Part shown: piece after piece, positions 4,282 through 16,312 of the stretch
Position numbering within the stretch: position 1 is the first letter of the stretch
Layout of the letters: every line of letters begins with the position of its first letter
Sequence record: PX915677.1
DNA: 64,000 bases
From: a phage
Direction: 5' to 3' (one strand)
Program-made: the position numbers and the translations under genes
The notes under the pieces: generated by a model
The model's database searches: none
Seen by the model: only the letters and a program-made list of their open reading frames with translations
What the model was told of the DNA's origin: nothing

Positions 4282-4456
4282 ACCAATGATGGTTGCAATA
4301 GGGTAAAGCAAATTATTTTAAACTTTTTTATAGTGGGATAGATAAAAGAACGGGCGCGCGTGATACATCATAGGAAACGGCTTGTAAAGCAACAATAAGC
4401 GTCCTAAAACGCATCACAACGAGCTAAAAGGGAGTAAGGCATACAATCACCTCATA

Positions 4457-4482
4457 AAAGAGAAAAGCCTCACTAGGAGGCT
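4457..4482 (-). terminator. Candidate intrinsic terminator after the 6265-4559 operon
   Basis: AGCCTC(actag)GAGGCT hairpin 4466-4482 flanked on plus strand by an A-rich run 4457-4465 (T-rich on minus strand). Confidence 0.4.
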
Positions 4483-4558
4483 TACAGGAAGGATTAGAGA
4501 ATCAGATAAATTATGACCATAGGCATGACTACGGCACAATACAGGAGAAAGATTAAGC

Positions 4559-4933
4559 CTATGGATTTACACATTGACCGTTACCGGATGCCATTTCATT
4601 CATGGACTCATCAAAGAGCGTCAACGATGAGCGCATCAAGTGATCGACCGTAATTTGCTTACCAGTGGTTTCATTTACCAGTTGAATAGTTTTATCATAT
4701 GATTGTACATGTTCAAAATCATTTACATGTAAAATAATAACCTTAGGTGACTTTTTACCAGTTTCATAGTTTTCTACAATATAGGTGCACTGTAAACCGT
4801 CAACCGTAGCAGGGGAGAACGTTGCAGCCTTAACGCTACCCATAGATGACAGCAGGACACCTAACAGGAGAACAACCAGAAAGAAGCCTACAAATACTTT
4901 CACTACGAATTTAATAATACCCATGATAATCAA
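4559..4933 (-). CDS. Membrane-anchored small protein (N-terminal hydrophobic segment)
   Basis: ORF track; N-terminus IIKFVVKVFVGFFLVVLLLGVLLSSMGSVKA is signal/anchor-like. Confidence 0.55.
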   Translation of the reverse strand: MIIMGIIKFVVKVFVGFFLVVLLLGVLLSSMGSVKAATFSPATVDGLQCTYIVENYETGKKSPKVIILHVNDFEHVQSYDKTIQLVNETTGKQITVDHLMRSSLTLFDESMNEMASGNGQCVNP

Positions 4934-14074: not shown

Positions 14075-14115
14075 TCGACAAATTAAATTATTAATAGTAT
14101 AGGAGCTAACATAAC

Positions 14116-15174
14116 ATGGCTAATCCAACTTTATTTGTATCGTATGACCAGAATGGTAAAAAACTTTCTTTTGCTAACTGGATTTCTGTTCTGTCCCCTC
14201 AGGATACCCCGTTCGTATCTATGACCGGTAAAGAGTCTATCAACCAGACTATCTTTAGCTGGCAGACCGATGCACTGGCAAGCGTTGACGGTAATAACGC
14301 ACACGTCGAAGGCTCTCGTGCTGAAGACGGCGAAATGAAACCGACTGTTATCAAATCTAACGTTACTCAGATTCTGCGTAAGGTTGTTCGTGTTTCTGAT
14401 ACTGCTAACACCACCGCTAACTACGGTCGTGGTCGTGAACTGATGTATCAGCTGGAGAAGAAAGGTAAAGAGATCAAGCGTGACCTCGAGAAAATCCTTC
14501 TGTCCGGTCAGGCTCGTACCGACGTTCTGGCTGACCAGTACCTGACTAACTCTGCAACTGATCCTGCTGTTGTTGGTCTGAATGACACCCATGCAGCTCG
14601 TAAGACTGGTGCATTCCAGTTCCTGTGTGCTCACGGTGGTCTGGCTGGTGGCGTTGTTGACAAGACCAAGAATGGTCCTGCTGACCCGGATACTGGTGCA
14701 GTAACTGTTAAAGTTGCACAGAATGCTTCTAACCCGACCACTAACATTGGTTTTGATGAAGCTGATATCTTTGATATGACCCTGCAACTGTATACCGCTG
14801 GTTCTGAAGCAGATATCATCATGATTAACCCAGCTCATGCTAAGATCTTCGCTGGTCTGCAAGAAAATACTCAGGGTTCACGTAAGCGTATCTTTGAGAA
14901 CACCAAGCAGTTCATCTACGAAGTTAACAGCATCACTGACCCGCTGGGCCAGAGCTACAAAATCATCGTTAACCGTTGGATGCCTACCGATGCAGTTTAC
15001 TTCTTCCGTAGCGCTGACTGGACTCAGATGGTTCTGCGTGCTCCGAAACGTACTGAACTGGCTAAAGACGGTTCTTACGAGAAGTGGATGATTGAAATGG
15101 AAGTTGGTCTGCGTCACCGCAACCCGTATGCTTCCGGCGTTCTGTTCACTGCTGCGGGAAAGGTGGCGGCGTAA
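14116..15174 (+). CDS. Major capsid protein (352 aa), short isoform
   Basis: Position after portal and scaffold; strong RBS; followed by frameshift site and Ig-like domain ORF. Confidence 0.75.
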   Translation: MANPTLFVSYDQNGKKLSFANWISVLSPQDTPFVSMTGKESINQTIFSWQTDALASVDGNNAHVEGSRAEDGEMKPTVIKSNVTQILRKVVRVSDTANTTANYGRGRELMYQLEKKGKEIKRDLEKILLSGQARTDVLADQYLTNSATDPAVVGLNDTHAARKTGAFQFLCAHGGLAGGVVDKTKNGPADPDTGAVTVKVAQNASNPTTNIGFDEADIFDMTLQLYTAGSEADIIMINPAHAKIFAGLQENTQGSRKRIFENTKQFIYEVNSITDPLGQSYKIIVNRWMPTDAVYFFRSADWTQMVLRAPKRTELAKDGSYEKWMIEMEVGLRHRNPYASGVLFTAAGKVAA

Positions 15175-15698
15175 CAGTAGACAGTGTGACTGTTAGCCCT
15201 GCGTCTTTAGCAAGTCTAGAGACAGGGGCTACTCGGCAGTTCACTGCAAGCGCGGAGAAAAGTGATGGTTCTACCGAAACAACTGGCTTTACTTGGTCAG
15301 TGACAGGAGGTGGTTCTATCACTCAGTCGGGTTTGTATACTGCTCCGAGTGCGTCTCAATCCACTGATGTATCCATTACTGCAACTTTAGAAGGTGTTTC
15401 TGGTACAGCAACCATTTCTGAAATTGTTGCTCCTGCTCCTACTATTGTGAGTCGTGGGCCAATTACAGGTAAAGTAGGTGGTACTACCACTAACTTCAAC
15501 ACCATGTTTACTGTAACTAATTCTATTGCTGATGATTACACACTTGTTGTAACTCCCGCAGAAGCTGGTACAATAAGCGCTAATAATTCGTTAAAATTAG
15601 ATGCTGCTGCAAGTGGCGAAGTTACTGTTCAAGCTAGTTTGACAGCTGACCCGTCCATCAATGCAACATGCACTTTTACTGGTGTAACACCTGCTTAA
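14116..15698 (+). CDS. Major capsid protein long isoform: predicted -1 frameshift at G GGA AAG (15156-15162) fusing an Ig-like (Big_2-type) domain
   Basis: Slippery heptamer in capsid frame 4 codons before stop; -1 frame open 15096-15698 with no ATG; junction ...TAAGK/GGGVTVDSVTVSPASLASLETGATRQFTA. Confidence 0.55.
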
Positions 15699-15705
15699 AA
15701 TTAGA

Positions 15706-15729
15706 CCCTGCCTTCGGGCGGGGTTTTTT
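15706..15729 (+). terminator. Intrinsic terminator
   Basis: CCCTGCC(ttcg)GGCGGGG then TTTTTT. Confidence 0.7.
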
Positions 15730-15757
15730 CGTTTTAAGACCTATACAAGCTAGTGTG

Positions 15758-15799: not shown

Positions 15800-16312
15800 A
15801 TGGCAATGCCAGATTTCAGAGGGGCTTTTACATATAACCCAAATACAGGGCATCTTTTCTGGTCTATGAGTAACGTATTCAATAAACAGAAAGGGAAACG
15901 TGCTGGATGTATTAATAATAAAGGATATCGTGTATTAACCTTCAAGAAGAAATCATACCTAGAGCATAAGGTCATAGCTGAACTCTTTCTTCCTAAAGTA
16001 GAAGGGAAGGATTATGTCAACCATAAGAATGGAATAAAAGACGATAACAGGATTGAGAATCTAGAGTGGTGTACTCAACAAGAAAACTGTACACATGCTT
16101 TTGAAACAGGCCTCTCAACACCTAGGAGTCTTGAGGATAACCCTAATTCCAAACTCACTAAAGAGCAAGTTCTCTTTTGTTTGGAGAACTACAAACCGAG
16201 AGATAGAGAGTTTGGAGCTAGAGCCTTAGCTAGAAAGTTTGGGGTCTCTAAAAGCACAATATCTCTCATTACTAAAGGCGTAAACTGGAAGGAGGTTTAT
16301 TATGATGCCTGA
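15800..16312 (+). CDS. HNH homing endonuclease (170 aa)
   Basis: HNH motif region VNHKNGIKDDNRIENLEWCTQQENCTH; inserted between capsid and downstream virion genes. Confidence 0.7.
   Translation: MAMPDFRGAFTYNPNTGHLFWSMSNVFNKQKGKRAGCINNKGYRVLTFKKKSYLEHKVIAELFLPKVEGKDYVNHKNGIKDDNRIENLEWCTQQENCTHAFETGLSTPRSLEDNPNSKLTKEQVLFCLENYKPRDREFGARALARKFGVSKSTISLITKGVNWKEVYYDA

Follow-up and report, generated by a model that had tools for sequence, protein, structure and literature searches.

The major capsid protein (MCP) gene of this phiEco32/SU10-like E. coli phage very probably gives rise to two isoforms, the longer of which would be produced by a −1 programmed ribosomal frameshift at the slippery heptamer G_GGA_AAG and would carry two Ig-like domains. 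The first-pass annotation of this DNA had predicted a −1 programmed frameshift fusing the MCP to an Ig-like extension, and this prediction is supported by both comparative and internal evidence, with the same heptamer being recoded in relatives. A frameshift at the capsid gene is not new, as descriptions and annotations of it exist for the genus Kuravirus. For the existence of a product of ~55 kDa we rely on publications about relatives, and our analysis establishes the anatomy of the site, its conservation, the missing start, the Ig-like fold of the extension, and the selection acting on it. The window referred to below is the whole analyzed stretch of 64,000 nt, and all features described lie on its + strand.

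The MCP gene (positions 14116–15174) was identified from the list of open reading frames together with Pfam and PDB matches and encodes a protein of 352 aa and 38.7 kDa with an HK97 fold. A Shine-Dalgarno sequence, AGGAG, is read at 14101–14105 with the ATG 10 nt downstream. The protein belongs to the SU10_MCP family (PF17236), with an E-value of 9e-77 and a score of 258.8 bits that lies well above the gathering threshold of 24.1, and it is ~99% identical to the major head protein of SU10 (PDB ID 7Z45, E 9e-236). Reading of the sequence and a script agree that the open reading frame extends from the ATG at 14116 for 352 aa to the TAA at 15172–15174, which is the end that had been reported. The slippery heptamer G_GGA_AAG is located at 15156–15162, close to this stop codon. 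The zero frame here reads GCT GCG GGA AAG GTG GCG GCG TAA, which places the heptamer in the X_XXY_YYZ phase and the AAG codon four codons before the TAA, both as originally claimed. The zero-frame tail of the short isoform (15163–15174) consists of Val-Ala-Ala followed by TAA. Among the Kuravirus relatives the zero-frame stop is found 10, 13, or 16 nt past the heptamer, and the tail varies in sequence as well as in length (VAA, AAA, AGA, AVAA, VAAA, or LDPQQ).

Several properties set the heptamer apart from its surroundings. It is the sole in-frame X_XXY_YYZ heptamer in the MCP gene, its GGA is unique among the Gly codons of the gene (1/26), and the codon GCG accounts for only 3 of the 36 Ala codons, all of them at the slip site or in the −1 frame overlap. 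With the gene's own codon usage the probability of the codon series GCG-GGA-AAG is ~0.0015. The count of GGGAAAG within the window is not above chance (10 copies versus 7.5 expected), and the copy at 15156 is the window's only one in the slippery phase of a long open reading frame with a long −1 frame behind it. The significance of the site thus lies in the combination of phase, −1 open reading frame, codon rarity, and conservation, not in the bare motif count. Across 18 distinct Kuravirus sequences with variable flanks, the heptamer never changes and always keeps its phase, and it is also present in the Proteus phage Privateer (MCP identity 57%), where the stop codon follows directly. With its variable flanks and the codons, rare in this gene, from which it is built, the heptamer shows a conservation that exceeds the demands of coding alone.

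According to the proposed mechanism, a few of the ribosomes translating the MCP mRNA would slip back by one nucleotide at 15156–15162, with the P-site tRNA-Gly re-pairing from GGA to GGG and the A-site tRNA-Lys from AAG to AAA. The slipped ribosomes would bypass the TAA at 15172 and read the −1 frame to the TAA at 15696. Two isoforms with residues 1–349 in common would result, a major form of 352 aa (38.7 kDa) and a minor form of 527 aa (55.9 kDa), the latter comprising the MCP, a GGG linker, and two tandem Ig-like domains of Big_2-type fold. The long form would be expected to enter the prolate head by co-assembly, at low copy number and with its Ig-like domains facing outside, and these domains probably let the virion adhere weakly to surfaces rich in carbohydrate.

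A script confirmed that the −1 frame stays open between 15096 and 15698, ending with the TAA at 15696–15698. The extension proper (15162–15698) contains 178 codons and the TAA and would be read only after the slip, giving the fused product of 527 aa and 55.9 kDa. The sequence across the junction of the zero and −1 frames is ...TAAGKGGGVTVDSV..., and the −1 frame after the slip reads GKGGGVTVDSVTVSPASLASLETGATRQFTA..., so that the junction peptide had been predicted correctly. The first three codons of the extension, GGT GGC GGC (15162–15170), encode the Gly-rich linker GGG, for which the relatives carry the G/S variants GGS, GSGG, GGGG, GGSG, and VGSA. Codon optimization drops at the shift, with Fop falling from 0.77 to 0.59 and GC3 from 0.46 to 0.26, the pattern anticipated where few ribosomes translate. 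The dN/dS of the extension is ~0.22–0.25 when compared with divergent relatives, which, with the fold described below, marks it as a genuine folded protein subject to purifying selection.

The AlphaFold2 model of the extension is of high confidence (pLDDT 96.6) and shows an all-beta structure with two beta-sandwiches. The extension, for which a single Ig-like domain had been annotated, thus holds two in tandem, Ig-like domain 1 at 15171–15431 (extension residues ~4–90) and Ig-like domain 2 at 15432–15695 (residues ~91–178), with domain 1 assigned from AlphaFold2 and Foldseek as Big_2-like by fold and domain 2 from AlphaFold2 and structural matches. The best PDB match found by Foldseek is a tandem Big_2 segment of LigA (PDB ID 8GYR, E 1.4e-10, 26% identity), and Big_2-CBM56 (PDB ID 7R3T) is also among the structural matches. 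The BFVD matches include BIG2 domain-containing proteins and T7-like minor capsid proteins, the top match being the frameshifted "Major capsid protein" of phage Paul, which is 894 aa long. At the sequence level, Pfam gives no match to the extension at the default threshold. A relaxed scan aligns Big_2 (PF02368) with extension residues 6–83 at 16.7 bits (E 0.007) against a cutoff of 22.8 bits, and membership of the Pfam family by sequence was rejected on this score. The earlier label "Big_2-like" thus holds for the fold, as indicated by the AlphaFold2 model and the match to 8GYR, and fails for family membership by sequence; we retain the description Ig-like, with a Big_2-type fold. PHROG 13745, "Ig domain containing protein," matches the extension with an E-value of 2e-75.

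The Ig-like reading frame could instead be a separate gene, with initiation at GTG 15186 (15186–15188) yielding a free protein of ~17 kDa that decorates the capsid non-covalently in the manner of Hoc or epsilon15 gp10. Most GenBank records let a distinct "Ig domain protein" begin at this GTG and call a reading frame of 170 aa from it, the SU10 structure paper considers gp10 a possible separate minor capsid protein, and the extension has a weak match to the PHROG "Hoc-like head decoration" (E 6.5e-4). However, no Shine-Dalgarno sequence is present within 3–13 nt of GTG 15186, and none was found before any other start codon of the −1 frame, nor is there a start codon at the beginning of the domain. 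The remaining potential starts are the GTG or TTG codons at 15300, 15333, 15447, and 15639 and an internal ATG at 15504, which contradicts the earlier statement that the frame has no ATG. The GTG is moreover lost in many relatives, being replaced by ATA or GTA in L005, L006, KBNP1711, L021, YF01, Paul, and others. In these phages the first start codon lies 35–48 codons in, inside Ig domain 1, and its use would shorten this domain by ~33 residues. The −1 peptide between the heptamer and the GTG (GGGVTVDS here) is still conserved as a G/S linker followed by VTVDSVTV. In the predicted structure the first beta-strand of domain 1 spans extension residues 6–12, whereas the GTG codon corresponds to residue 9, so that the strand begins before the codon, which counts against GTG 15186 as a start. 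For SU10 a species of ~55 kDa has also been reported, and for Privateer a larger capsid band. In Privateer the heptamer marks the exact opening of the −1 frame, and a start codon is not reached until 62 codons further on. The absence of an independent start together with the conserved upstream peptide favors a −1 frameshift over a separate gene, and initiation at GTG 15186, which had been put forward as the alternative source of the Ig-like domain, is disfavored as the main start by the missing Shine-Dalgarno sequence and by the ATA or GTA codons of relatives that keep the upstream peptide. We consider a separate gene improbable, and low-level initiation at this codon may be an additional source of free Ig protein in this phage. 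The tryptic peptide GGGVTVDSVTVSPASLASLETGATR includes eight residues encoded upstream of GTG 15186 and therefore cannot come from independent initiation.

It could also be argued that the heptamer and the −1 frame are a decaying or non-functional remnant, the extension not being made in meaningful amounts and having no role. The SU10 record lends some weight to this, since the extension is lost there by a 1-nt insertion while SU10 is viable and its capsid appears uniform by cryo-EM. All other Kuravirus sequences examined, however, keep the heptamer and an open −1 reading frame of 178–547 codons, and the low dN/dS, the confidently predicted fold, and the construction of the heptamer from codons that are otherwise avoided in the MCP gene make a remnant very improbable. 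A change of frame at the RNA level, by slippage of RNA polymerase on GGGAAAG, would be expected to give the same protein as a ribosomal frameshift. Transcriptional slippage is known to require long homopolymer runs, of ~7–9 or more A or T, whereas the longest runs here are only G3 and A3, and the motif obeys the X_XXY_YYZ rule of ribosomal slippage and does so in the right phase; this explanation is extremely improbable.

The ribosomal frameshift at G_GGA_AAG is consistent with the position of the intrinsic terminator that closes the capsid transcription unit (15703–15736). As had been noted, a strong terminator follows the −1 reading frame, with a terminator-like stem at 15703–15726 of 10 pairs, a UUCG loop, and a T-run reaching to ~15736. 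The terminator is placed after the extension and not after the MCP stop codon, which counts for a fusion of the two, and the SU10 and Paul records likewise annotate a terminator.

Two conserved RNA hairpins downstream of the heptamer were identified from the RNAalifold consensus and pair counts. Hairpin H1 (15174–15193), with an ACAGU/ACUGU stem, begins 11 nt past the heptamer and is invariant in all relatives, and it is uninformative for covariation for this reason. Hairpin H2 (15194–15231) begins 31 nt past the heptamer and covaries at two pairs, with 15206:15220 occurring as U:A, G:C, and A:U and 15207:15219 as U:G and G:C. The former pair is never broken, 99.7% of the cells of H2 are paired, and the observed covariation score was reached in none of 500 shuffles, in a test comprising 18 distinct but closely related sequences from a handful of lineages, with just 14 loci contributed by the metagenome scan. 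The spacings of 11 and 31 nt exceed the classical 5–9 nt for stimulatory hairpins, a distance at which no stimulatory RNA structure is present here, which counts against the frameshift, and H2 is too distant from the heptamer for the classical stimulation mechanism. In λ G/GT a stimulator is not known to be obligatory for G_GGA_AAG. No Shine-Dalgarno-like sequence was seen by eye in the ~16 nt upstream of the heptamer. A hairpin directly after the heptamer (15163–15202) was discarded because it folds no better than shuffled sequence (z = −0.94). The SU10 paper of 2014 proposed a hairpin whose loop contains the slip site, CUGCUGC/GGGAAAG/GNGGCGG (PMC4281155). This hairpin does fold (z = −2.4), but LAMP and the KBNP1711-type sequences disrupt its pairing, with no compensatory changes, and 88% of its cells are paired compared with 90% in shuffles. 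We rejected it as a stimulator, given the lack of covariation support and a 5′ arm that would sit inside the ribosome during the slip. That the conserved element formed by H1 and H2 tunes the ratio of short to long capsid protein from the unusually long distances of 11 and 31 nt, and so replaces the hairpin of the SU10 paper, is conceivable but rather doubtful.

The region is 97–99% identical at the DNA level to phiEco32, ES17, DE5, and FS2B. The same gene and heptamer, at the same position and followed by a G/S linker and a VTVDSVTVSP... Ig-like extension as here, are found in phiEco32 (gp11/gp12), SU10 (gp9/gp10), Paul, and YF01. For SU10, the 2014 paper describes a slip at GGGAAAG "as in phiEco32," with forms of 38.5 and 55.4 kDa (PMC4281155), and the phiEco32 frameshift is stated through citing papers and in the RefSeq note on Paul. 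The YF01 paper also states a capsid frameshift (PMC9965538). A joined CDS is present in the YF01 and Paul records, the latter with the RefSeq note "Frameshift at GGGAAAG," whereas the closest records, those of FS2B, DE5, and ES17, annotate two separate genes or features. In cryo-EM of SU10 neither additional capsid density nor a long band was observed, and the 1-nt insertion in the SU10 record, which brings in a TAG 11 codons past the slip, accounts for this. As SU10 demonstrates, the phage can do without the extension under laboratory conditions. The extension has 178 aa in this phage and in phiEco32, ~540 aa in Paul and YF01, and is truncated in the SU10 record, its length across the Kuravirus sequences being anywhere between 178 and 547 aa while the heptamer ahead of it stays identical. 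L021 has an MCP identical in protein sequence to that of this phage and a very different extension. The extension is a hot spot of module exchange, which may matter for adaptation to host range or environment.

For annotation, the capsid locus would best be represented as one gene with two products, of 352 and 527 aa, joined at 15162. With the long isoform, the heads of phages under therapy development, such as ES17, would bear tandem Ig-like domains. In the ES17 paper the binding of mucus and glycans is credited to the tail fiber alone, with no Ig-like fold involved. The capsid extension is a candidate contributor to mucosal adherence, and a natural low-copy fusion site may be relevant to phage-display engineering.

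Comparable arrangements are known from other phages. The heptamer of λ G/GT, G_GGA_AAG, is identical to the one described here. By analogy with that system the efficiency of frameshifting would be a few percent, the slippage in λ G/GT being ~3.5% as cited in PMC9965538. Both systems share a strategy of two products at a fixed ratio from a structural gene, although in λ these are tail assembly chaperone genes and the extension is not Ig-like. The slippery sequence of T7 and T3 differs from G_GGA_AAG. In T7 and T3 gene 10A/10B, as here, a podophage MCP undergoes a −1 frameshift near the end of its gene and the minor, C-terminally extended form co-assembles, but the MCP is of a different family; slippage there is ~10% as cited in PMC9965538. 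Privateer (Privateervirus) also has GGGAAAG at the 3′ end of the homologous MCP gene and an Ig-like −1 extension, in this case composed of I-set and Big_2 domains, and its record contains a joined CDS. The long capsid protein of Privateer was observed as one of two bands by SDS-PAGE and detected by MS (PMC7881722). In contrast to the phage studied here, its heptamer abuts the stop codon, its extension is not homologous in sequence, and a hairpin begins ~6 nt downstream of the heptamer. Ig-like domains on the head, with a proposed weak adhesion to carbohydrate or mucin, are also a feature of T4 Hoc and other Ig-like decoration proteins (the BAM model), but Hoc attaches as a polypeptide of its own to capsids that are already assembled, whereas the domains here are predicted to be a covalent part of the capsid subunit. 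Salmonella phage 7-11 and Aeromonas phage APT65 have a short and a long, C-terminally extended MCP of the same family as this one, and these arise by gene duplication and in-frame fusion without recoding. The existence of such long MCP paralogues indicates that fusion of an extension is tolerated in this MCP family. In 7-11 the C-terminal extension is Big_2; homology to the present extension was rejected, as the E-value of 0.099 is not significant, and the two are analogous and not demonstrably homologous. In more distant relatives, namely LAh_8-like Aeromonas phages and soil contigs, the same fusion appears to arise at a non-canonical heptamer, G_GUA_AAG.

Over positions 14116–15729 the window is 99.2% identical to the Escherichia phages FS2B and vB_EcoP_DE5, 98.6% to ES17 and 97.1% to phiEco32, and Pfam assigns the genes flanking this region to its SU10 portal, SU10 MCP and SU10 adaptor families. 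This near-identity and the family matches indicate, on sequence grounds, that the phage is a phiEco32/SU10-like prolate podophage of E. coli belonging to the genus Kuravirus. The major capsid protein (MCP) ORF (14116–15174; 352 aa, predicted 38.66 kDa) has an AGGAG Shine-Dalgarno (SD) motif, read from the sequence, 10 nt before its ATG and ends in GCT GCG GGA AAG GTG GCG GCG TAA, so that the heptamer G_GGA_AAG at 15156–15162 stands in X_XXY_YYZ phase. The -1 frame overlaps the MCP 3' end and is open from 15096 to a TAA at 15696–15698, and a terminator, made up of a UUCG-looped hairpin of 10 pairs plus a T-run, occupies 15703–15736; all of these features lie on the plus strand. After the slip the -1 frame reads GKGGGVTVDSVTVSPASLASLETGATRQFTA..., and the long product joined at the heptamer would comprise 527 aa (predicted 55.88 kDa). 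In the window the capsid-locus terminator is located 3' of this extension; in LUZ24, and behind the short MCP of 7-11, it directly follows the MCP stop. Re-reading of the sequence bears out the ORF, the in-phase heptamer, the open frame and the terminator described in the first-pass annotation, except that the -1 frame, said to lack an ATG, contains one at 15504, plus several GTG/TTG codons, none with an SD. The proposed -1 frameshift fusing the MCP to an Ig-like extension is supported by conservation, codon choice, start-codon loss and fold, and very probably operates in this phage; such a fusion is already known for the genus Kuravirus.

The bare occurrence of GGGAAAG is not above chance (10 copies in the window versus 7.5 expected). 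Of these copies, that at 15156 alone is in slippery phase within a long ORF and followed by a long -1 ORF, and the MCP contains no other in-frame X_XXY_YYZ. Its codons are unusual for the gene: the 26 Gly codons of the MCP comprise 20 GGT, 5 GGC and a single GGA, that of the heptamer, and GCG accounts for 3 of 36 Ala codons, all three in the heptamer or the -1 frame overlap. Under the MCP's own codon usage, the probability of A-G-K being spelled GCG-GGA-AAG is ~0.0015. The shift would proceed by tandem slippage, tRNA-Gly pairing with GGG in place of GGA and tRNA-Lys with AAA in place of AAG. The lambda G/GT site is the same heptamer. Slippage at lambda G/GT is ~3.5%, as cited in PMC9965538.

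For comparison, MCP-anchored loci were taken from IMG/VR, metagenomes and GenBank phages, with the heptamer being no selection criterion, and extra Kuravirus records were added by similarity across the slip region. GGGAAAG is in phase in 18/18 distinct Kuravirus sequences. The zero-frame tail 3' of it varies (VAA, AAA, AGA, AVAA, VAAA, LDPQQ), the stop falling 10, 13 or 16 nt past the heptamer, and the -1 frame in every case specifies a G/S linker and then VTVD(S/T)(V/I)TVSP.... Past the identical heptamer the -1 ORF runs for 178–547 codons of tandem Ig-like repeats; the variation shows in a comparison of L021, L022, L023, L034, YF01 (L037) and Paul (L038) with window 15162–15698. The MCP protein of L021 is identical to that of the window (dN 0, dS 0.06), whereas its extension has diverged (dN 0.37, dS 1.5), implying recombination at or near the slip site; the extension is a swappable module behind an identical heptamer. 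Proteus phage Privateer, with 57% MCP identity, also has GGGAAAG, but abutting its stop codon directly, and its -1 ORF of 169 codons encodes I-set and Big_2 domains.

Most records instead begin a separate Ig-like gene at GTG 15186. This codon has no SD and is ATA or GTA in L005, L006, KBNP1711, L021, YF01, Paul and others, where the first start codon lies 35–48 codons past the heptamer. The gene-caller proteins there start with 'MSDGST...' and miss the first strands of Ig domain 1, the N-terminal domain of the extension, even though these relatives conserve the -1 frame peptide encoded upstream. Privateer's -1 frame becomes open right at its heptamer, and the first start codon comes 62 codons downstream. 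These observations argue against a separate gene and favor the frameshift. GenBank/RefSeq annotation of the Kuravirus capsid locus is inconsistent: some records have two genes, the second from GTG, SU10_010, pEC-N1203 and HC-25922 have a shortened Ig ORF called from an internal ATG, and in YW01 no gene is called at all. Among the capsid-locus records examined, a joined CDS is present only in Paul, YF01 and Privateer.

The extension is a real protein. AlphaFold2 with a 21-sequence alignment predicts two all-beta domains (pLDDT 96.6), where a single Ig-like domain had been annotated. Its description as Big_2-like holds at the level of structure, the best PDB match being the tandem Big_2 segment of Leptospira LigA (E 1.4e-10), but not by the Pfam Big_2 threshold (16.7 bits versus 22.8). 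Tandem Ig, S-layer and adhesin domains make up the other PDB matches; among viral structures, phage Paul's frameshifted 'Major capsid protein' (894 aa) scores best, and the long MCP of 7-11 and T7-like minor capsid proteins match as well. The extension also hits PHROG 13745, named 'Ig domain containing protein' (2e-75). Relative to divergent relatives, dN/dS is 0.22–0.25 for the extension and ~0.10 for the MCP. Across the shift Fop falls from 0.77 to 0.59 and GC3 from 0.46 to 0.26, a drop in codon optimization consistent with translation by just a few percent of ribosomes, if, as we infer, optimization follows ribosome flux.

The hairpin proposed in 2014 (PMC4281155), whose loop holds the slip site, is not conserved and shows no compensatory changes, and was rejected as a stimulator. 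RNAalifold instead gives two adjacent plus-strand hairpins downstream of the heptamer, H1 (15174–15193) and H2 (15194–15231), both within the coding sequence of Ig domain 1. H1 is invariant among the relatives and therefore uninformative for covariation. H2 is paired at 99.7% across 18 distinct sequences, with U:A (8), G:C (6) and A:U (4) at pair 15206:15220, and either G:C or U:G at pair 15207:15219; these sites fall at the third, synonymous position of a Ser codon and at position 2 of a variable E/Q/L/P codon. Its covariation score was reached in 0/500 shuffles, which is suggestive only, as the test involves two covarying pairs, few lineages and a structure derived from the tested sequences themselves. 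The spacers of 11 nt (H1) and 31 nt (H2) exceed the classical 5–9 nt, and the distance from the heptamer to H2 is too great for classical stimulation. Given these spacers and the limits of the covariation test, the heptamer alone is treated as sufficient for the slip.

Frameshifting in this group has been described before. The 2014 SU10 paper (PMC4281155) places the slip at GGGAAAG, 'as in phiEco32', and gives capsid forms of 38.5 and 55.4 kDa. The YF01 paper reports the slip in YF01 'and other group phages', and a premature -1 stop in SU10 (PMC9965538); Privateer shows two capsid bands with MS support (PMC7881722); and the RefSeq note for Paul reads 'Frameshift at GGGAAAG; Frameshift in PhiEco32 major capsid protein product as well (PMID 18294652)'. 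Unlike all other Kuraviruses, SU10 (KM044272, locus 2568–2582) carries a 1-nt insertion, GACACTGTCTACTG versus GACAGTGTGACTG, which brings a TAG 11 codons past the slip and would thereby account for its uniform cryo-EM capsid (2022). This TAG is at odds with the 55.4 kDa long form given for SU10 in 2014, and the insertion arose either by mutation of the stock or through an error in sequencing. ES17 (NC_070984, 2241–2783) has an intact heptamer and a 178-aa Ig-like extension. A study of mucin and heparan-sulfate binding by ES17 credited the tail fibre, with no Hoc or Ig-like fold involved (PMC7885116), apparently leaving the capsid extension out of account.

Two phages with duplicated MCP genes serve as natural controls. 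In Salmonella phage 7-11 (L017, 2482–5258) one MCP gene is short and a second encodes 585 aa, including an in-frame Big_2 extension that has no significant sequence similarity to that of the window, and Aeromonas phage APT65 (L018, 1569–5763) has several MCP paralogues, at least one of them short and one joined in frame to an extension via a VVGGG linker. With these duplications, the short-plus-long MCP pair is a recurrent solution in the family, reached via recoding or duplication. In six soil metagenome/IMG-VR contigs (L009–L011, L030, L031, L033) and Aeromonas phage LAh_8 (L012), around locus positions 4361–4930 and with 57–66% MCP identity, the MCP ends in ...CTG AAG GTA AAG GCG TAA, where the canonical heptamer was not found and G_GTA_AAG sits in its place. 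An overlapping -1 ORF of 109–190 codons follows, with Ig-like domains that in the soil contigs are classical Big_2-like repeats, no ATG or SD ahead of the domain, and then a terminator, which suggests that G_GTA_AAG may be a non-canonical -1 site using an A_AAG slip.

A 170-aa HNH_3 (homing-endonuclease-like) ORF (15800–16312, plus strand) separates the capsid terminator from the adaptor gene in the window; its 3' end overlaps the adaptor ATG at 16302. The ORF is missing from SU10, ShigP1, YW01, LAMP, ES17 and DE5, in which the adaptor starts ~100 nt past the terminator. Of 86 matching records, just 11 span the whole ORF, at 91–94% identity compared with 97–99% in the flanks, and it looks like a mobile insertion.
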